A stretch of 56,429 bases of DNA from a virus (lineage: Duplodnaviria > Caudoviricetes). The notes beneath the pieces are model-generated. The model did not search any database. It was not told the origin of the DNA and saw nothing but the letters and a program-made list of their open reading frames with translations. Positions 1-47,056 of this stretch are shown here, piece by piece. Position 1 is the stretch's first letter; every line of letters begins with the position of its first letter. Both the position numbers and the translations under genes were made by a program. The DNA is taken from positions 1 to 56,429 of the IMG/VR virus record IMGVR_UViG_3300032288_000938; one strand, 5' to 3'.

Positions 1-123
1 CTCCACAGTCTCTGCAACGTCTGCCGGGACAGTCTGGGGAGCCGGATTAACCCGGAAAGAAAGAAGGGGGGCCGAAGCCCCCCTCCGGTAGATTAGGCAG
101 CGCCGGGCGAACCGAAGATGCCA
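1..123 (+). repeat. Exact direct repeat of window end (56307-56429); circular assembly overlap
   Basis: 1-123 identical to 56307-56429; it includes the 3' end of the capsid gene, so the contig closes into a 56,306-bp circle. Confidence 0.95.
56..83 (-). terminator. Intrinsic terminator after major capsid gene (copy at 56362-56389)
   Basis: Minus strand GGGGGGC-TTCG-GCCCCCC followed by TTCTTTCTTT. Confidence 0.85.
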
Positions 124-1007
124 AGCGGGTCAGACACGCCGAAGCTATAACGCTCGCGAGCCTTATAGCGGACGTTGCCTGTGTCGAAGTCACCATCCAT
201 CGAGGTGGTCATCGGTGTACGCTCGAAGTGCTTCATGCCATTCGGAACGTCGGTGATGAGGAACCACGCATCGGTGTCGGTCAGATAGTGGTTGACCGAG
301 TAGCCTTCGGGGATCGTCCCGTTGGTCTTGATGGCGTTGATGTCGTTATCGGCAGTCGCCGTGCGGAGTTCAGTCTCCAGCAGGCGGGTAGCCACGAACA
401 TCAGGCTCGGCGGAACAATCAGCTTGCGGGGCTTAGCCGCAATCAAAAGACCGCGCTGATCCTTGAAGGCAGCGATCTGAATGACCGCAGCTTCGAGGGA
501 GGTTTCGTTCAGATCAGCAGCAGTGGAAGGTGTGTTGCTGTTGTAGCCACCACCAACCAGCGGATGCTGGGTGTTGAACAGGGTAACGCCGTCGCCGGAG
601 GTGAAAGCACCGCCAGAGAAGCCGTTGTTCAGCGGATAAGCCGCCTTGACCTGTTTCGTATAGGCCATACCACGGGCCAGAGCCTTGGTATAACGAGCCG
701 AAAGGCTGTCATACAGGTTGTCTTCCATCGCTTCTTCAGTGATGGAGAAACCCATAGCAATGGTTTCGTGGTTGTAACGAGCCGTCCAAGCTTCCTGCGC
801 ATTGTCATAGGCGATGGCAGAGCCTTCAGCCTTGACAGGAGCGGCAGCAAAGCCGGAAAGCTGGACTTCTTCTTCGAAAGAACGCTCAGAAGATTCCGTT
901 TCGTAAATTGCCTCATGCTCGTTTTCGTACTTCTTGTACTCAAGGCCAAACAGAGCGTTTAGGCCGGGGAGCAGTTCTTTGAGGAGTTGTGCGCGACTAA
1001 TAGCCAT
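93..1007 (-). CDS. Major capsid protein (Mu gpT-like)
   Basis: MAISRAQLLKELLPGLNALFGLEY N-terminus and YKARERYSFG C-terminus typical of this capsid family; head-operon position; strong terminator downstream. Confidence 0.9.
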   Translation of the reverse strand: MAISRAQLLKELLPGLNALFGLEYKKYENEHEAIYETESSERSFEEEVQLSGFAAAPVKAEGSAIAYDNAQEAWTARYNHETIAMGFSITEEAMEDNLYDSLSARYTKALARGMAYTKQVKAAYPLNNGFSGGAFTSGDGVTLFNTQHPLVGGGYNSNTPSTAADLNETSLEAAVIQIAAFKDQRGLLIAAKPRKLIVPPSLMFVATRLLETELRTATADNDINAIKTNGTIPEGYSVNHYLTDTDAWFLITDVPNGMKHFERTPMTTSMDGDFDTGNVRYKARERYSFGVSDPLGIFGSPGAA

Positions 1008-6188: not shown

Positions 6189-7688
6189 TCAGTAATACGG
6201 TTCATTAGTGGGGAGGCGAGGTGGCACAGGATCGTCCTCCTCATCTGTGTGGATTCTTACAAAGCCGCCTTGGCGGAAGCGCAGGATAGCCTGCGAAACC
6301 GAGTCAACGTAGTCATCATGCGATCCTGCCGGGAACGCGGCGCACTCTTCGATTACTTCTTCGGCCCATCTGGTGTCTGGCACCCATACACAGCCCGATG
6401 CAAAAAGATCCGTGATTGCGTTTACACGAGCAATCTTGTCTTGTCCCCGAGAAGGGGTGAAATCCGTAACCGGAATACCAGCCGCCCGCAGTTCGAAAAT
6501 TAGCGGGGAACCCGAGGCCTTCGCTTCGATTATAACCATATCCGGTGTCCATTGGCGATAATGGTCCATGGCCACCCTCTTCAGTTCCGGAAACTCCATC
6601 TTGTCCTTGAACGCATCCAGAAGGATAATGTTCGGTATCGGGGTCCCCGACTCGTCGTTGTAAAATACGCCCCATGTTGTGCAAGCTGAATAGTCGCTCC
6701 GTTCGGTTTTCTTAAAGGCCGTATCCCACGATACAAGAATTGATTCACAAGGCGGTGGGTGATCTCTGTCCCAGATACGCCACCACTCACGCTTCAGGAG
6801 AGCGCCTTCTTCCGAAGTCGGGTCCTGCTGATACTGAGCAGACCATTTACTAATCGGCAGTTCAGCCTTAAGCTTTTCAAGCTCAGCAAGCGACCAGAAC
6901 TCAGGCCAGAGCGGCTGCCCGGACGGCATGATGGCGGGGAACTCAATAACCTCCCACTCACCAGAGCCATCGCGCTTAATGGACGAATCAATGATCTGCC
7001 CTGTCAGGTCTCGCTTTGACCACCGGGTCATAACGATGATAATGGCCCCGCCCGGCTGGAGACGCTGGCGAGGACCAGAGGTGTACCACTCAAAAACCTT
7101 ATCATACACGCTTGGGTCGAACTGGCCAAGCATGGCTTCCTGTTCCGAGTGCGGGTCGTCGATGATGAGTAGATCAGCACCCTTACCCGTAACAGCGCCA
7201 CCAACACCGATGGCGAAGTATTCGCCCCGCTTGTTGGTAGACCAGCGGCCTGCGGCCTTGCTGTCTGATTGCAGACCTATACCAGAAAACACCTTCTGGT
7301 AGTCTTCAGATCCAACAAGGTTACGAACTTTACGGCCAAATCCAGTGGCCAACTCTGCCGTGTGTGCAGTCTGAATAACCTTCTTTTCGGGGAACTTTCC
7401 CAGAAACCAAGCGGGGAGAAGGTATGAGGCAAACTCTGATTTGGTATGGCGGGGTGCCATATTGATAATCAGGCGTTTGCACTTGCCGTCCGCAACCCGC
7501 TTAAATGCGTCCGCCATAATCTGATGATGCCTGCCGCCAATAAAACCGGGCCACATCATCTTTACGAACTTCATAAAATCATCGCGAGCAGCCTCGCGGT
7601 CTCTCGCCTCGTCAAGGCGGCGCAGTAATTCCAGAATCTCCGGCTTCTCAGAGTCGGGGATTTTTGAGATAATCTCTGCGTAATCCAT
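6189..7688 (-). CDS. terL: Terminase large subunit
   Basis: Walker A variant MAPRHTKS, Walker B LLIIDDP, MTRW, nuclease SWDTA and HDDYVD. Confidence 0.95.
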   Translation of the reverse strand: MDYAEIISKIPDSEKPEILELLRRLDEARDREAARDDFMKFVKMMWPGFIGGRHHQIMADAFKRVADGKCKRLIINMAPRHTKSEFASYLLPAWFLGKFPEKKVIQTAHTAELATGFGRKVRNLVGSEDYQKVFSGIGLQSDSKAAGRWSTNKRGEYFAIGVGGAVTGKGADLLIIDDPHSEQEAMLGQFDPSVYDKVFEWYTSGPRQRLQPGGAIIIVMTRWSKRDLTGQIIDSSIKRDGSGEWEVIEFPAIMPSGQPLWPEFWSLAELEKLKAELPISKWSAQYQQDPTSEEGALLKREWWRIWDRDHPPPCESILVSWDTAFKKTERSDYSACTTWGVFYNDESGTPIPNIILLDAFKDKMEFPELKRVAMDHYRQWTPDMVIIEAKASGSPLIFELRAAGIPVTDFTPSRGQDKIARVNAITDLFASGCVWVPDTRWAEEVIEECAAFPAGSHDDYVDSVSQAILRFRQGGFVRIHTDEEDDPVPPRLPTNEPYY

Positions 7689-7694
7689 GCGAAT

Positions 7695-7703
7695 ATGATA
7701 CCA
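7695..7703 (-). promoter_or_regulatory. Extended -10 promoter candidate giving a leaderless terL mRNA
   Basis: TGGTATCAT ends 6 nt before terL ATG; no SD; upstream terminator at 7718-7754 isolates it. Confidence 0.5.
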
Positions 7704-7716
7704 CGCGGGGTTTAGA

Positions 7717-7843
7717 TAAAGAAAGACCCCCCACGGGGCGAACCATGGGAGGTCAACTAAGCAGGGACTTTCGCGTCTTCAGTGCTGGCTATGACCCAGA
7801 ATGGCATCCCTAACCCGGAGAGGACTTACTCTCTAGCCAACGG
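7717..7843 (-). ncRNA. Candidate ~125-nt structured sRNA with own promoter and terminator
   Basis: TTGACA(7871-76)-17-TAAATT promoter; stem GTTGGCTA/TAGCCAGC; GAGAG/CTCTC; AGGGAT/GTCCCT pseudoknot; terminator GACCTCCCATGG/CCGTGGGGGGTC-TTTCTTT. Confidence 0.6.
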
Positions 7844-7877
7844 GGCCAATTTAGCATCTATTGTTCAGTCTGTCAAG

Positions 7878-7952
7878 TGGTGCCGGGTGAGAGGATTGAA
7901 CTCCCGACCTTCGGTTTACAAAACCGCTGCTCTACCGCTGAGCTAACCCGGC
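7878..7952 (-). tRNA. tRNA-Thr(TGT)
   Basis: GCCGGGTTAGCTCAGCGGTAGAGC...TT-TGT-AA loop...GGGAGTTCAATCCTCTCACCCGGCACCA; cloverleaf with CCA. Confidence 0.95.
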
Positions 7953-8237
7953 GAGGGTTGGGTGCCGATTTAATTTTAAGGGCCGTCCTTAAAAGGCCCA
8001 CCGTTCGCAACCCCGCCACGATAGCGGGCATCTACTAGGCCGAGAAATCCCCTATCGGCTGGGGTAGGTCGTTACCCCTCTTTCTCTTTAACCCAAGAAG
8101 GGACGGGCTATGACCACCGCTACGCAGAAGCCATTGTCTTAAGCCATACCCCCGTCCAGTATGGCAGCATCTCCCTCATCTCTAGGCGGACAAACTTGCC
8201 GCAAGCCAGCCCGCAAGGGGATACAGAACTGGCCGGT
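7953..8237 (-). ncRNA. Candidate structured ncRNA between the two tRNAs
   Basis: At least seven hairpins and a 7-bp loop pseudoknot (GGACGGG/CCCGTCC); no credible ORF. Confidence 0.5.
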
Positions 8238-8314
<77 letters not shown>

Positions 8315-8485
8315 TGTAGGTCCGGGTGGTGAGCTTTTCACCTCGCCTGCTGGCCCGGCCCAGCGCCTCCCCTCCTGCGAACTGCTTGGCCTCTTCAGGC
8401 GGTCCCAAGCAGCCAGAGAGCAACGAACCGTTCCCCACGCTCAACCCCTGAAGGGCTTCTAGGCGGTATCGCTGGCACACTCTCG

Positions 8486-8665
8486 TCACTCCTTTGAGCG
8501 ATCCCGGTAAATCATGTGCATCATGCCATAATCCTCTCCCAAGTAAAGAGGAGCGGGGCTTCCAATTGGCTTCCAGCCATCCTTCTTCATGGCATCAACC
8601 CCGTACATTAGATCTGGGAAATTACTCCCCCATACGATCCTTGTGTCCAAGACCTTGAATGTCAT
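8486..8665 (-). CDS. 59-aa protein, DUF1737-like (not in ORF track)
   Basis: Hand translation MTFKVLDTRIVWGSNFPDLMYGVDAMKKDGWKPIGSPAP...; ATGA overlap with upstream gene. Confidence 0.65.
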   Translation of the reverse strand: MTFKVLDTRIVWGSNFPDLMYGVDAMKKDGWKPIGSPAPLYLGEDYGMMHMIYRDRSKE

Positions 8666-8931
8666 ATTGCCACCGCGATGTATGCGTAGTCTTCGTCACC
8701 AATACGCTCTTGGAAAAGCAATACAGAGCCAGTCTCATAGAACTCCCAAGCCTTTTGGGCCACCCTAAACTCAGGGTAGATCATATCACCTTTTACCATC
8801 TGTGGCATCTTGGACATTCTGTCCTTCATAAGCCAGCCACGATAGTAGCAGATCCGATGTCCCCGCTTGGCGTTTGTAGCCCAGCGGGTGAAATCTTCTG
8901 CGGTGTTGACATATTTGATACCATTAAGCAT
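8662..8931 (-). CDS. Hypothetical protein
   Basis: GGAAGGA RBS; ICYYRG and G.V.L.Q.R...Y.YIA motifs seen in alphaproteobacterial phage proteins. Confidence 0.7.
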   Translation of the reverse strand: MLNGIKYVNTAEDFTRWATNAKRGHRICYYRGWLMKDRMSKMPQMVKGDMIYPEFRVAQKAWEFYETGSVLLFQERIGDEDYAYIAVAI

Positions 8932-8987
8932 TGCTTTTCCTTCCTGCTTTAGCTATAAGAAGATAGCCAGATCAATTGGAGAAGTCA

Positions 8988-9341
8988 ATGAAAAATCGTA
9001 GCTCTTGGACAGAATATGGCGAAGGCCATTACCCTGACTGCCATTATGAGGGGCGGCAATGGCCCGGAAGTGTAAGAGAACTGGTTCTAAACGGCTTCGC
9101 AGACGGAACGTATTTGCGGCAGCTTTATCCAATCCGCTATATCGAAACCGCGTTGTCCGTAAAAAAAGACTCAGAGATAAGGCGGTCAACAAGCAAGACT
9201 TGCTCAAACTGCGCGAATTGGATTGAAACAGACGCCTCGTCCTATGAAGGACTTTGCGCCTCTGAACATAGTTTAGCCGCCACCGCAGATACGGTGGAGG
9301 CTCAGTTCTCGTGCAAGCACTGGAGGGCGAAGGAGTATTAA
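8988..9341 (+). CDS. Counter-oriented hypothetical protein with C-terminal Cys cluster
   Basis: GGAG RBS; CSNCANW...GLC...SCKHW; fills the gap between minus-strand genes. Confidence 0.55.
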   Translation: MKNRSSWTEYGEGHYPDCHYEGRQWPGSVRELVLNGFADGTYLRQLYPIRYIETALSVKKDSEIRRSTSKTCSNCANWIETDASSYEGLCASEHSLAATADTVEAQFSCKHWRAKEY

Positions 9342-11826: not shown

Positions 11827-12297
11827 CTATTTATCAACCCCTAAAGGACAAAAATATCCCAGTGCTATTGATTCGTCTAGCTTATTTCCCTTTTTCAGGT
11901 TGTCTTTAGCAGGCAAATACTGCAAATTCTGGAGAATGTGAAGCCCGCAAATGGATTCGTGGCGCAGCGGAACGATGTGATCCACATGAAACCCCGCAGG
12001 ACAATCACGGTAGAACTTGGATATGGCCTTCTTGTCGGCCCAAGACGGCATGGCCTTCATCCTATCGGCAGCCCTGATCCGCCTTTTGTGGATATTGTTC
12101 CTGTCCCAATTGCGCCTCCACAGTTTCCCGGTGGCAGTTTTCAGCCACGCCTTCCTATGCGGAAAGTGACACTCACAGCAACGCCCGCAAGACGACAGCC
12201 TCTGGGCAACATGCCCATGCTTGCATGGCTTGCCGGTGTAATATCTGGTTAAACCGAGGCGCAAAGCCTCAGTGCGGGAGGATGGCAAATCAGTCAA
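11827..12297 (-). CDS. HNH homing-type endonuclease
   Basis: YYTGKPCKHGH...C..C zinc motif; HVDHIVPL...GLH...NLQ...N..K.N. Confidence 0.85.
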   Translation of the reverse strand: MTDLPSSRTEALRLGLTRYYTGKPCKHGHVAQRLSSCGRCCECHFPHRKAWLKTATGKLWRRNWDRNNIHKRRIRAADRMKAMPSWADKKAISKFYRDCPAGFHVDHIVPLRHESICGLHILQNLQYLPAKDNLKKGNKLDESIALGYFCPLGVDK

Positions 12298-27322: not shown

Positions 27323-27761
27323 GATCCGCGATATTGCGATTAACTTCGAGGCCGTGAAGGTCTCAATGAACCAAGACAAGAATGGCCTGATGCTCAAGCT
27401 CGCCATTCATCCCTCTGACGCGCCGCAAGATCTTGTTGTTGCACCCGTCGGCACCCGCTATATGATTGCTGCCGTAATGCTGAACGACCAAGACGAACCA
27501 ACGATGGGCGTCAAGAAACGTGAAGCGGACACGGTTATATCAATTGCAGGGGCCTTATGTCGTAACAATCGCTTTCAGGATTGGCTGGAGGCAACGGGCC
27601 TTGCGCTTGAGAGTTCCGAGAAGGCTGCCGTTGATGCTGTTCGTGATTTCTGTGGCATCAAATCGCGCAGCGAGTTCTCGACAAACGAAAGCGCGCGCAC
27701 TAAGTTCATGGCGCTGCGTGAACAGTTTGAAGCTGATTATAAAAAGGGGAAGGTAAGATGA
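27315..27761 (+). CDS. Conserved phage protein
   Basis: FEAVK, L.IHP.D.P, GTRY, AG.LC....FQ.W, CGI.SRSE. Confidence 0.75.
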   Translation: MTEIRDIAINFEAVKVSMNQDKNGLMLKLAIHPSDAPQDLVVAPVGTRYMIAAVMLNDQDEPTMGVKKREADTVISIAGALCRNNRFQDWLEATGLALESSEKAAVDAVRDFCGIKSRSEFSTNESARTKFMALREQFEADYKKGKVR

Positions 27762-28570
27762 AAGTAGTTGAAGTCGTCCGCGAATACGCCCGGTCCCGTC
27801 GGTTCACAAACCTTTCCGATAGCACAAAGCGCCAGTATATCTCATCAATGAATGAGATCGAGAAGGCGGTTGGCCAAATGGATATTCAGAGCGTCAAGAG
27901 GCGGGATCTTGTCCGGGCATTTGAGGCATTGGGCGATACGCCAGCCATGGCTAATCGCTTCTGCCGGGTGTGCAGCGTTGTATTCAACTATGCAGTGGAG
28001 ATGGAGTATTGCGGTGGGAACCCCGCCCATCGGCTGACCCCGTTTAAGCTCGGCACGTGGAAGCAATGGACGAAGGAAGAAGTGGACAAGGTGATCGCCC
28101 TTAACCACCCTATCGTAAGTGTGGCTGTTGCTCTGGCCTATTACACGGCGCAGAGAGAGGCAGACATTCTTAAGATGAAATGGTCAGACATCAAGGACGG
28201 GGTTTTGTATGTTAAGCAAAACAAAACCGGGGCTGTCCTTGAGATTATGGTTGCGCCGCAGTTGCAGGCCATTCTGGATAAGCTGCCTAAGACAGGGGAA
28301 CACATCATCCGTTCCAAGGCAGGGGGCCTCGTAACCGGGCCATCGTTCCGGAATATGCTCAAGCGCGTCACGCGGTCTGTCGGGGTTGACGCCCCGTTCC
28401 ACGGATTGCGTAAGACTGTTGGATCGCGCTTGGCAGAGAAGGGCAAAAGCGCAAGTCAAATCGCCGCCATCCTCGGGCATCGTACCCTAAAAATGGCGGC
28501 GCTTTATACGCAACAGGCTGACAGCAAGAAGCTTATCGCCTCTGCTGTCACCTCCCTAGCTGCTGATTGA
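27758..28570 (+). CDS. int: Tyrosine recombinase/integrase
   Basis: R (AQREAD), K (QNKTG), HGLR, LGH and Y (ALYT) catalytic set. Confidence 0.9.
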   Translation: MKVVEVVREYARSRRFTNLSDSTKRQYISSMNEIEKAVGQMDIQSVKRRDLVRAFEALGDTPAMANRFCRVCSVVFNYAVEMEYCGGNPAHRLTPFKLGTWKQWTKEEVDKVIALNHPIVSVAVALAYYTAQREADILKMKWSDIKDGVLYVKQNKTGAVLEIMVAPQLQAILDKLPKTGEHIIRSKAGGLVTGPSFRNMLKRVTRSVGVDAPFHGLRKTVGSRLAEKGKSASQIAAILGHRTLKMAALYTQQADSKKLIASAVTSLAAD

Positions 28571-44846: not shown

Positions 44847-46460
44847 TCAAATTAAGCTTGCAAAGTATGTTGTTATAATAGCGCGTCCGTTTGCGCCAGC
44901 ACCAGAGTTTCCGGTTTCCGAGCCGCCGCCTCCACCACCCGGAGCGGTTCCAGCCGTTGCATTGTTGGCATCAAAAGCTCCAGCACCACCAGCACCGCCA
45001 TAAAAAGAAACACCGCCAGCACCGGGGCCGGGTGAGCTATCAACCGCACCAGCGCCACCGCCTCCGCCTCCATAAACTGAAGAACCACCAGCGCCGTTAG
45101 TATCGCTTGAATTATTTGTTGAACCTCCACCACCACCACCACCAAAGGAGCCATCAGTACCATTTTCGCCGTTCACGCCACTAATGCTGGTTCCGTCACC
45201 TCCATTACCCGCAAGTCCAGCACCATTTCCGGCAGTTCTGCTAGTAGAACTAACACCAGCAGAAAATGGTCCTCCGCCACCACCGCCACCACCAGCCACT
45301 CCATCTACTCCTCCGCCACCACCGCCATATGCATAAACCAATGTTCCAAAGGATGTCGTACCACCTGCGTTTCCATCTGCGTTGGCAGTTACAGACGCCC
45401 CACCCGATCCGATTGTAACTGCGGTATCTGAAAGAGAGGAGTAATTAAGGATTACCTCATTGTATCCACCACCACCACCACCTCCTCCCGGCACTGAATT
45501 AGCCCCTTTGGCACCACTGCCTCCGCCACCCCAAAGCTGGACCTTGACATATTGGAAATTACCAGAAGGTTTTGTCCAAGTTCCACTGGAGTTGAATGTT
45601 TGCACATCAATAGTTGTTGACCAAGATGGAGCAGCACTTGCACCAGAAGACAAAATCACAGAACCAGAAGAACCATAATTAGCGCCGCCGATACCCCACT
45701 GACCAGCATTGCCAATACGGAATCTTTCGGTAACGGTAGATGCGCCGTCTGCCGTTGTGTAAAACGCAATTCTACCCGGCATGTCATTTGTGCCGGGGGT
45801 TCCATCAATCGCCACCTGAATGCGGGCGGTCGGTATAAGAGCCGAATTGTCGGAGCCATAGAAGCGGAAGTCGCCTACGGTATCTCCAGACTGGACAACA
45901 GAATAGGTTCCGTAAGATCCGCCACGGGATTTGCCAAACCAGTTTACCTGACCTGTGGCCGTGTTGCCCCAGTCAACCCCGCCATACCCACCTTCAGCAA
46001 GAACGTCCGTGTGAGACTGGAACTGTGTTTGCACAGTTTCAAGAGTAAGCGTCTGCCCATAACCAGCGATAGCGTGACCAGCGGCAGTAATAACAAATGG
46101 AGTCGAGTCAGGGCTTGTTTCGTCTTCGACACGAAGGGCGTCTGCCGTGCCAAGCTGCGTAATGCGAAGAGCGGGGTTTGAATTATCGGTTGTTTCGATA
46201 ACCTGAGCCGCCGTGAAGGTATTGATTGAGTTAACCTGCGGTGTCGTACTGCTTACAGCAAGCGACCCCGATGATAGGTTTAACCCCGTCCCAACAGAGA
46301 TTTCCTCGGCAGAACCAGTTCCAGACGATGTCCGCCCGATCAAGCGGGCGGTGGCAAGCGTGAGATCGTGTTCAGCGTTCCAGTTGGAAGGCCGAACAAG
46401 ACTGGTATCCCCTCCATCGGCGACTGCCGACTGGAAGTTATGTTTAAGGGAAATCGCCAT
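44847..46460 (-). CDS. Tail fibre with glycine-rich C-terminal domain
   Basis: VRPSNWNA.H N-terminus, DMPGR..F.TT.DG, F.SSGTWTKP followed by GGGG repeats. Confidence 0.8.
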   Translation of the reverse strand: MAISLKHNFQSAVADGGDTSLVRPSNWNAEHDLTLATARLIGRTSSGTGSAEEISVGTGLNLSSGSLAVSSTTPQVNSINTFTAAQVIETTDNSNPALRITQLGTADALRVEDETSPDSTPFVITAAGHAIAGYGQTLTLETVQTQFQSHTDVLAEGGYGGVDWGNTATGQVNWFGKSRGGSYGTYSVVQSGDTVGDFRFYGSDNSALIPTARIQVAIDGTPGTNDMPGRIAFYTTADGASTVTERFRIGNAGQWGIGGANYGSSGSVILSSGASAAPSWSTTIDVQTFNSSGTWTKPSGNFQYVKVQLWGGGGSGAKGANSVPGGGGGGGGYNEVILNYSSLSDTAVTIGSGGASVTANADGNAGGTTSFGTLVYAYGGGGGGVDGVAGGGGGGGGPFSAGVSSTSRTAGNGAGLAGNGGDGTSISGVNGENGTDGSFGGGGGGGSTNNSSDTNGAGGSSVYGGGGGGAGAVDSSPGPGAGGVSFYGGAGGAGAFDANNATAGTAPGGGGGGSETGNSGAGANGRAIITTYFASLI

Positions 46461-47056
46461 TACTGCGCCACTCTGTTGCTCTTACGAATGTTCTCTTCTG
46501 CCGTCAGTATTTGCAAGTTTGACGGTACATGGAGGCCGGATACGGTTTTCCCGCGAAGGGGAATAATGTGGTCAACGTGATGCGGGATCCCAGTGGAGTC
46601 TGTAAGCTCCTGTGCGCGACGATAGATGTTCTCTATCTTAACACGGGAGCCAAAACAGACGGGAACCCAAGGCGGAACTGCGCGCGTTTTGGCCAGCTTG
46701 TAACGCTTCTTGGCCGCATTGGATTTGCCACGATTTTTACGGGCGTATTCCTTGGCAGCTTCGAGGCGCTTTTCGCGGTGTTTAGCGTAAGCCTCGCGGT
46801 TCTGTTGGCGGCTTTTTTCCGGGTCAGCCCAGTATGCTTCTTTTTGAAAGTTTGGGTTTTTGGAGACCCGTCGATTGTAGTACTTTTTTTGTCTCTGCCT
46901 TGACTTTCCCACGTCTTGAAAATATCTTTTCGATGACGCTGCCTTATGGCAGTCCTTGCAGTTACTTCGCAATCCATCAGAAGCAGTCTTGTGTCCATAG
47001 AACTGGTCACAAGTTTTCTCAGCGTTGCATGTAATGCAGATTTTCGTCTGCATCAC
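46460..47056 (-). CDS. HNH homing-type endonuclease
   Basis: K.C..C...K...F...C..C N-terminus; [19 protein letters not shown]...EN..KSN. Confidence 0.85.

Follow-up and report, generated by a model that had tools for sequence, protein, structure and literature searches.

A candidate new family of structured non-coding RNA genes directly upstream of terL in a clade of uncultivated freshwater phages

The IMG/VR record IMGVR_UViG_3300032288_000938 (Duplodnaviria; Caudoviricetes) is a complete freshwater phage record of 56,429 bp with terminal repeats and a G+C content of 53%; its whole length was analysed and is called the window here. On the minus strand, tRNA-Pro (8314-8238) is followed by a 285-nt spacer, tRNA-Thr(UGU) (7952-7878; found by both Rfam and ARAGORN), a unit without an open reading frame (ORF) at 7876-7716, and the terminase gene terL. 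The latter (6189-7688, minus strand) encodes 499 amino acids (PHROG 38, E 1.8e-107) and is the first gene of a long structural block; the closest named phages by terL are 023Pt_psg01 and the Pelagibacter phages HTVC027P and HTVC023P, with 55-61% identity. The ORF-less unit, which comprises a promoter, an RNA of about 124 nt and a terminator, is the subject of this paper. Based on the comparison of related sequences, it is a real, conserved and structured non-coding RNA gene of a new family, so far found in one clade of uncultivated freshwater phages.

The promoter of the unit consists of the -35 hexamer TTGACA (7871-7876), which begins 1 nt after the CCA end of tRNA-Thr, and, 17 nt further, an extended -10 element, TGc TAAATT (7848-7856; TG at 7856-7855, hexamer at 7853-7848). 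The two hexamers agree with the consensus at 10 of 12 positions. The predicted primary transcript (7716-7841, about 124 nt, both ends inferred) starts at G7841, 7 nt past the -10 hexamer, and ends in the U-tract; the start is placed near 7841 because similarity among relatives begins there, at the first base of the closing stem. This 8-bp stem, P1, is formed by GUUGGCUA (7834-7841) and UAGCCAGC (7784-7791), and it encloses the hairpin P2, GAGAG UAAGUC CUCUC (7818-7833; stem 7833-7829/7822-7818), and a 27-nt core, CCGGGUUAGGGAU-N-CCAUUCUGGGUCA (7792-7818), in which only N (7805) is variable. A variable CA-rich linker with the motif GUCCCU (7763-7768) leads to an intrinsic terminator, composed of a 12-bp hairpin with two G-U pairs (7725-7754) and the U-tract UUUCUUUAU (7716-7724), the latter occupying the would-be -35 position of the terL promoter. 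The two G-U pairs exist in the minus-strand RNA alone and would turn into C-A mismatches on the plus strand, which makes the unit strand-specific. The initial annotation had described a promoter-to-terminator unit just upstream of terL, with TTGACA-17-TAAATT, an 8-bp stem, an internal hairpin and a 12-bp terminator; this layout was confirmed, and all of its coordinates are correct once they are read on the minus strand.

Homologues of the RNA were sought in several ways. Among 80 terL-related IMG/VR loci, the blastn and nhmmer search of terL neighbours found an RNA homologue at one, L002, whose terL is 93% identical. A scan with the exact 24-nt core retrieved 11 contigs, in all of which the unit lies directly upstream of terL, and in the metagenome_contigs collection the exact core gave two matches, the contig of member L090 itself and a near-identical one. 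An independent scan that did not use the RNA, made with the sequence box before the terL ATG, returned 11 places; nine are contigs already known, and all nine carry the RNA with an unchanged core. The other two terL-box matches belong to unrelated AT-rich phages and were set aside as chance. Loosened core patterns gave 40 and 12 matches, of which the new ones scored no more than 20.6 bits or had just the 18 pattern bases, and these were likewise taken as chance. With the covariance model built for the family (R1), only L002 rose above noise over the 80 terL-related and 19 pattern-hit loci, and R1 together with the loosened core patterns gave no credible additional member over about 120 loci. 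In genome_contigs, the exact core had no match and none of the 14 terL loci was credible (best 13.4 bits, E 0.22). R1 also had no match in three metagenome-assembled genomes (MAGs) with related terL contigs or in 151 genomes from the order to which one of these belongs, a search that had no positive control and does not show absence. The known family thus comprises 13 copies that represent 10 distinct sequences, and the counts out of ten given below refer to these distinct members. The initial annotation had called for homologues upstream of terL with covariation, and these were found.

The RNA was recovered from independent samples. Relatives come from freshwater metagenomes, and 20 DNA sequencing runs from 11 studies contain part of the interval 7000-9000. 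Contigs from three of four freshwater DNA runs examined, each from a separate study, reproduced the sequence of the unit region exactly; the identity across separate studies means that the unit is not an assembly artefact. The fourth study yielded a variant with 17 substitutions and five indels, all within 7714-7785 (terminator, linker and 3' strand of P1) and none in the core, P2 or the promoter.

Phylogenetic analysis of terL (94 rows) placed nine RNA-bearing rows in one clade with a support of 97. The remaining member, L091, stands in an unresolved three-way split with this clade and an eight-row sister clade that lacks the RNA (support 100), and the 18 RNA-bearing and sister rows are jointly supported at 96. 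In the eight sister-clade loci, with terL 73-76% identical, there is no RNA at the site; tRNA-Thr, or other sequence in L019, is found instead. The RNA is therefore present in the RNA clade and L091 and absent from the sister clade among otherwise collinear relatives, a distribution for which, judging from the tree, a single gain or a single loss would suffice. The upstream neighbour of the unit varies among members and may be tRNA-Thr, tRNA-Asn, the 3' end of another structured RNA or coding sequence.

The comparison of the ten members revealed a distinct pattern of conservation. The -35 hexamer TTGACA and the 17-nt spacing are invariant in all of them, with spacer sequences that are unrelated; in the -10 hexamer, A at position 2 is kept in 10/10 and T at position 6 in 9/10. 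In P1 and P2, six of 18 pairs are double-changed, and 97.8% of 180 cells are paired, as against 25-52% in slid controls, in which the partners were moved by 1-3 columns; none of 500 column shuffles matched the observed covariation score. Double-sided changes occur in five of the eight P1 pairs (95% of cells paired) and in one P2 pair (A-U/G-C/G-U), all five pairs of the P2 hairpin being paired in 100% of cells. These figures should be read with the caveat that the member sequences are related and few. The terminator position is occupied in 10/10 members by a G+C-rich hairpin of 9-13 bp followed by a U-tract, and its sequences are all different. In the P2 loop, L083 and L091 (1460-1535 in each) carry a 15-nt insertion that forms an extra hairpin, flanked by an asymmetric internal loop common to both, A-R-C opposite UAGUA-W, which could be a defined RNA motif.

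The core is invariant at 26 of 27 positions across the ten distinct members. In the terL DNA of the same ten phages (1,290 nt), invariant columns make up 52%, no invariant run exceeds 8 nt and the members are on average 78% identical in pairwise comparison. The invariance of the core may partly reflect ascertainment bias, which is countered by the nine terL-box loci and by the loosened patterns, which returned no variant. Within the invariant core, RNAalifold placed one G-U-rich helix, and we propose GAU-(N bulge)-CC/GGGUC as a candidate third helix; both lie in invariant sequence. The linker, CA-rich and 25-60 nt long, keeps GUCCC in seven of the ten members and UCCCU in one more. The unit had been annotated as pseudoknotted on the grounds that AGGGAU (7811-7806) is complementary to GUCCCU (7768-7763). 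The complementarity is indeed present, and the retention of GUCCC in an otherwise variable tail is compatible with the pseudoknot, which is plausible but unproven; its 5' partner, AGGGAU, never varies, and the possible third hairpin competes for the same GAU.

The conservation might instead be ascribed to a small protein, encoded on the antisense strand (MTQNGIPNP...) or on the sense strand. The antisense frame starts as ATG/GTG ACC CAG AAT GGN ATC CCT AAC CCG, and the variable base of the core falls on a third codon position. The frame, however, meets a stop after 14 codons in L083 and L089 and is put out of register by a 1-nt indel in L090, the remaining third positions are all invariant, unlike those of coding sequence, and neither a ribosome-binding site nor a promoter lies ahead of it. 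The sense AUG, which holds the variable core base, is AUU or AUA in six of the ten members, and the compensatory changes in P1 and P2 fit an RNA rather than a protein. Small ORFs in both orientations were rejected, as no frame is conserved on either strand, and a coding origin of the conservation is hardly credible.

No known RNA family was detected at the locus. With gathering thresholds, the Rfam 15 scan of the whole window returned only the two tRNAs; at E<=10 over 7600-8500, the additional rows were SpF11 (24.6 bits, cut-off 54) and NsiR1 (15 bits, cut-off 39), both on the terminator. At seven related loci, Rfam at E<=1 had nothing at the RNA, and no riboswitch, leader or aptamer family of Rfam matched the unit. 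ARAGORN reported only tRNA-Thr and tRNA-Pro in the window and no tRNA or tmRNA at the RNA, and the tRNA clan of Rfam had no row at 7716-7876 at E<=10. In the blastn search of 7640-8400 against 50,697 phage records, the best 40 of 327 matching records cover the tRNAs alone. The absence of a recognised family, already remarked in the initial annotation, is borne out by the Rfam 15 scan, and the designation as a novel phage sRNA (small RNA) stands within reach of sequence analysis, the unit being ORF-less, covarying and outside the families of Rfam 15. A search of full-text literature, supplements excluded, found no description of this RNA, and in PMC9599517 the passages with the terms tRNA, promoter or noncoding hold nothing relevant to it.

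The start of terL is also unusual. An extended -10 element, TGG TATCAT (7695-7703, minus strand), is a probable late promoter and lies 6 nt before the terL ATG. A -10 hexamer is found exactly 6 nt before this ATG in 10/10 RNA-bearing members and in 8/8 sister-clade loci, in the variants TATCAT, TATTAT (L083), TATAAT (L091, L011-L016 and L021) and TATGAT (L019). In sister loci L011-L016 and L021, TATAAT directly adjoins the CCA end of tRNA-Thr and precedes six variable nt and ATG, and L019 has TGG-TATGAT, six nt and ATG; the sister clade thus keeps the late -10, the 6-nt distance and the ATG with neither RNA nor terminator. The sequence ahead of terL (ccccgcgtggtatcatattcgc-ATG) contains no Shine-Dalgarno motif, whereas sites of the GAGG/AGGA type precede many other genes of the phage. 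Because the -10 is fixed at 6 nt from the start codon, the letters between them are variable and a Shine-Dalgarno sequence is lacking, the terL mRNA is probably leaderless and transcribed from its own late promoter, which has a -10 only. More distant terL relatives (e.g., L020, L022 and L058) have ordinary Shine-Dalgarno leaders. Since the RNA-less sister clade has this -10 as well, expression of terL probably does not depend on the unit in cis, and the unit would be an insert placed after the tRNA array and ahead of the late promoter. In 10/10 members, 23-25 nt separate the end of the terminator stem from the late -10, and the U-tract falls on the -35 position; this spacing fits an insulating role for the terminator, and some functional connection with the late promoter may exist as well. 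A promoter-like site, TTGACT-17-TATCTT (8960-8988, minus strand), precedes small ORFs and the tRNA array and may drive an operon of tRNAs and structured RNA. Only weak terminator-like sites occur on the minus strand between it and the sRNA terminator; with no terminator between the tRNA genes and the unit, the terminator of the unit would also end the tRNA operon.

The separate -10 and the apparently leaderless start of terL, which the initial annotation had overlooked, bear directly on whether the unit is an sRNA gene or a 5' leader. In the latter case, TTGACA at 7876 would mark the real late promoter, and the RNA would be a cis-acting leader of the late operon, either a sensor or polymerase modifier resembling a riboswitch or the HK022 put RNA, or a read-through module of the PR'-tR' type that gates terL and about 40 kb of structural genes. 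The order of elements is that of an attenuator, with a promoter, a junction of about 62 nt whose junction nucleotides are invariant, a linker, a terminator and a gene start 28 nt past the U-tract, and it stands at the head of the minus-strand structural block (terL, portal and head genes), where host-polymerase phages often place antitermination, as passages of PMC7547250 describe for lambda and Stx phages. The unit is never separated from terL in the ten members, its terminator keeps a constant distance to the terL -10, and GUCCC could switch between AGGGAU and other partners. However, in the absence of a Shine-Dalgarno sequence, a read-through mRNA with a leader of about 150 nt would translate terL poorly, and the -10 is held 6 nt from the ATG despite differing letters, in the same manner in the sister clade that has no RNA or terminator to read through. 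Folds and inspection of the alignment revealed no antiterminator pairing with the 5' arm of the terminator shared across the ten members, no riboswitch or leader family of Rfam matched, and the 51 ORFs compared with PHROGs at E<=1e-5 include no Q-like antiterminator, although small unannotated ORFs remain. A cis-acting leader is unlikely, yet it is the main rival of the reading favoured below. A related proposal, for which we see a smaller chance, is a new kind of late-gene switch on a leaderless operon, in which the core would sense a host factor or metabolite, or bind polymerase or ribosomes, and so time the transcription or translation of the operon from terL to the tail genes, either in trans or through the terminator, which abuts the -35-less late promoter. 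In two proposed versions, the conserved UAGGGA would pair with the 3' end of 16S rRNA and favour leaderless messages, or polymerase would be handed from the terminator to the late promoter.

The unit could also be a transcriptional cassette whose RNA is incidental, insulating the -35-less late promoter or delivering polymerase to it; a polymerase that has just terminated can slide and start again close by. Such a function would account for the U-tract at the late -35 position and for the 23-25 nt from stem end to -10 in 10/10 members, and no terminator lies between the tRNA genes and the unit, whose own terminator thus ends the tRNA operon too. The invariance of 26 of 27 core positions and the compensatory changes in the stems would then be unexpected, an insulator needs a terminator alone, and the sister clade does without the cassette, so that we regard an incidental RNA as improbable. 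Lower still is the chance of a packaging RNA like phi29 pRNA, which would bind the portal or procapsid and bridge it to the terminase during DNA packaging. To this analogy, invited in the initial annotation by the position before terL, nothing else can be added than that position beside terL and portal, a similar size class and a multi-helix junction. In phi29, the pRNA gene is not beside its ATPase gene. Rfam includes a pRNA family, yet the RNA has no Rfam match, and the pRNA covariance model found none in the window, in 7600-8500 or at the seven related loci. The 499-aa TerL is a full-length classical two-domain terminase that includes the nuclease half. A packaging RNA, as a required partner of the motor, would be expected wherever the motor is conserved, yet the RNA is absent from the site in terL relatives of 74-76% identity, five sister-clade fragments had no match to it, and in three near-complete relatives (90-100% complete, terL 55-69% identical) it was found nowhere at E<=1, with a positive control of 82 bits. 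The promoter is of the host sigma-70 type and lies upstream of, and insulated from, the late genes. Inspection of the alignment gave no complementary loop pair suited to ring formation, as the P2 loop (UAAGNC, or 15 nt longer) varies in length between members and has no conserved complement. As judged from these comparisons, the pRNA analogy is not supported.

We favour, at somewhat better than even chance, a stand-alone, moron-like structured sRNA whose invariant core would engage a conserved partner in trans, while its terminator shields the leaderless late promoter. Its own conserved promoter, its own terminator and the lack of an ORF were all found, and an insert driven by sigma-70 and bounded by a terminator is how morons, whose expression does not depend on the phage programme, are classically organised; such an insert and an integrase in the same phage were counted for this reading. 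Host sigma-70 RNA polymerase would initiate near G7841, and the first 62 nt would fold into a junction closed by the 8-bp P1, with the 5-bp P2 abutting it. The invariant 27 nt between P2 and the 3' strand of P1 would be the functional surface, onto whose AGGGAU the GUCCC of the CA-rich linker may fold back, and the strong intrinsic terminator would stop the RNA at about 124 nt. Acting in trans, the core would bind a highly conserved partner, which may be a protein of host or phage origin, a conserved RNA or a small ligand. The second job of the terminator would be to halt transcription from both the tRNA operon and the unit's own strong promoter exactly at the -35 position of the late promoter. 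In one clade of freshwater podophages, the cassette would have come to lie between the tRNA cluster and the late promoter. That the RNA is made, where exactly it begins and ends, that it acts in trans and which partner it has are the parts of this scheme that we infer.

Several observations weigh against the trans-acting sRNA. The fixed spacing of 23-25 nt and the constant place before terL could likewise be explained by a cis role at the late promoter. As the core does not vary, any pairing inside it escapes the covariation test. All ten members come from one vertically related clade, a sampling in which "always before terL" and "mobile cassette" are indistinguishable and independent covariation events are few. 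The folding energy is unremarkable (minimum free energy -46.1 kcal/mol, z = -1.04, 28 of 200 shuffles as good), and for this reason the case against chance rests on the comparative evidence. A duplex scan of the core and linker against both genome strands yielded trivial self-antisense pairing only, the rest lying in the background tail. Antisense control of the leaderless terL start was considered as a candidate and rejected, as the sRNA paired with the first 40 nt of terL no better than shuffled controls in 10/10 members. Among the sequencing runs listed as carrying the sequence there is no RNA run, and the promoter, start, end and abundance of the RNA are predictions.

Other features of the genome were recorded as well. 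The structural block that begins with terL runs off the low end of the record, where a head protein is encoded at 93-1007 (minus strand), and resumes from the high end at 28548-56283 (minus strand) with tail and ejection genes and a 2,194-aa protein. Because the block spans both record ends, the terminal repeat probably reflects a circular or permuted assembly rather than physical genome ends. A tyrosine-integrase-like gene (27758-28570, plus strand; PHROG 1, E 1e-41) hints at a temperate phage. A prophage copy was not detected, the terL relatives in genome_contigs being short MAG contigs of mixed taxonomy, several of them assigned to Burkholderiales. Two endonuclease VII/HNH-like genes (PHROG 1035; 11827-12297 and 46460-47056, both on the minus strand), one of them within the tail-gene block, may be homing endonucleases.

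The 285-nt spacer between tRNA-Pro and tRNA-Thr (7953-8237, minus strand) contains a second, conserved structured RNA of about 285 nt with no Rfam or ARAGORN match. Its 5' domain consists of a long hairpin and a GGACGGG/CCCGUCC helix, and its 3' domain of about 135 nt has a covarying closing helix (GCCGAC/GUCGGC, GCCGAU/AUCGGC or GCCAG/CUGGC) and the end GGCACC(A/C). Compensatory changes were observed in 10 of 23 predicted pairs of the 3' domain and in 4 of 44 of the 5' domain. The RNA is full-length in L084/L092, L086 and L172, and L088 and L090/L156 have the 3' domain only. In L172, a different phage, it lies between tRNA-Arg and tRNA-Thr, carries an insert of about 95 nt and has no sRNA or terL behind it. 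This RNA is probably excised from a tRNA precursor.

To our knowledge, very few phage-encoded small RNAs outside the model coliphages have comparative support. With its clean gene anatomy, its covarying stems and its unusually rigid 27-nt core, the RNA before terL may well be one that binds a protein or a ligand, and its phages are abundant in freshwater. Together, the sRNA, the apparently leaderless terL start and the RNA of about 285 nt offer a compact test bed for the separation of early RNA and late genes in a phage that uses host polymerase. If the RNA gates the late operon, a new regulatory principle would be at hand; if it acts in trans as an sRNA, a new family would be added.

The unit can be compared with several known systems. 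Like phi29 pRNA, it would be a phage-encoded structured RNA of about 120 nt, and the comparison was raised because of its nearness to the packaging genes; it differs in having no sequence or structure match, another type of terminase and no retention among close terL relatives. Terminator-type riboswitches and the HK022 put RNA are promoter-proximal structured RNAs with invariant unpaired nucleotides. They share with the unit the promoter-proximal structure followed by a terminator and a gene, whereas here no aptamer family matched, no conserved antiterminator was seen, and terL, the gene that follows, is preceded by a -10 of its own and lacks a ribosome-binding site of the leader type. In the lambdoid PR'-tR' module (lambda 6S RNA, StxS of Stx phages), a constitutive sigma-70 promoter and a terminator at the head of the late genes give rise to a short RNA, which in Stx phages gained trans-acting sRNA functions in the lysogen, as stated in passages of PMC7547250. 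The likeness lies in a promoter followed by an intrinsic terminator within about 200 nt at the head of the late genes. In these phages, however, Q antitermination lets that promoter drive the late genes, which have ordinary leaders, whereas here terL seems to have its own -10 and a leaderless start, no Q-like gene was detected and a sister clade lacks the unit; in addition, the RNA has a junction fold and an invariant core rather than the character of a by-product, and there is no sequence similarity. The stable RNAs species 1 and 2 of T4 (rnaC and rnaD) lie beside a tRNA cluster and are cut from the tRNA precursor. They resemble the RNA before terL as small stable RNAs by phage tRNA genes, a comparison that the RNA at 7953-8237 fits even better, and they differ from it in that the latter has its own conserved promoter and terminator. 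Phage morons and the prophage sRNAs DicF, IpeX and AgvB/AsxR are stand-alone genes. In contrast to these, the RNA described here is highly structured, its most conserved part has no obvious linear seed and a single insertion context has been sampled; in common with them, it has its own promoter and terminator, lies between conserved functions, is variably present and is carried by an integrase-bearing phage.

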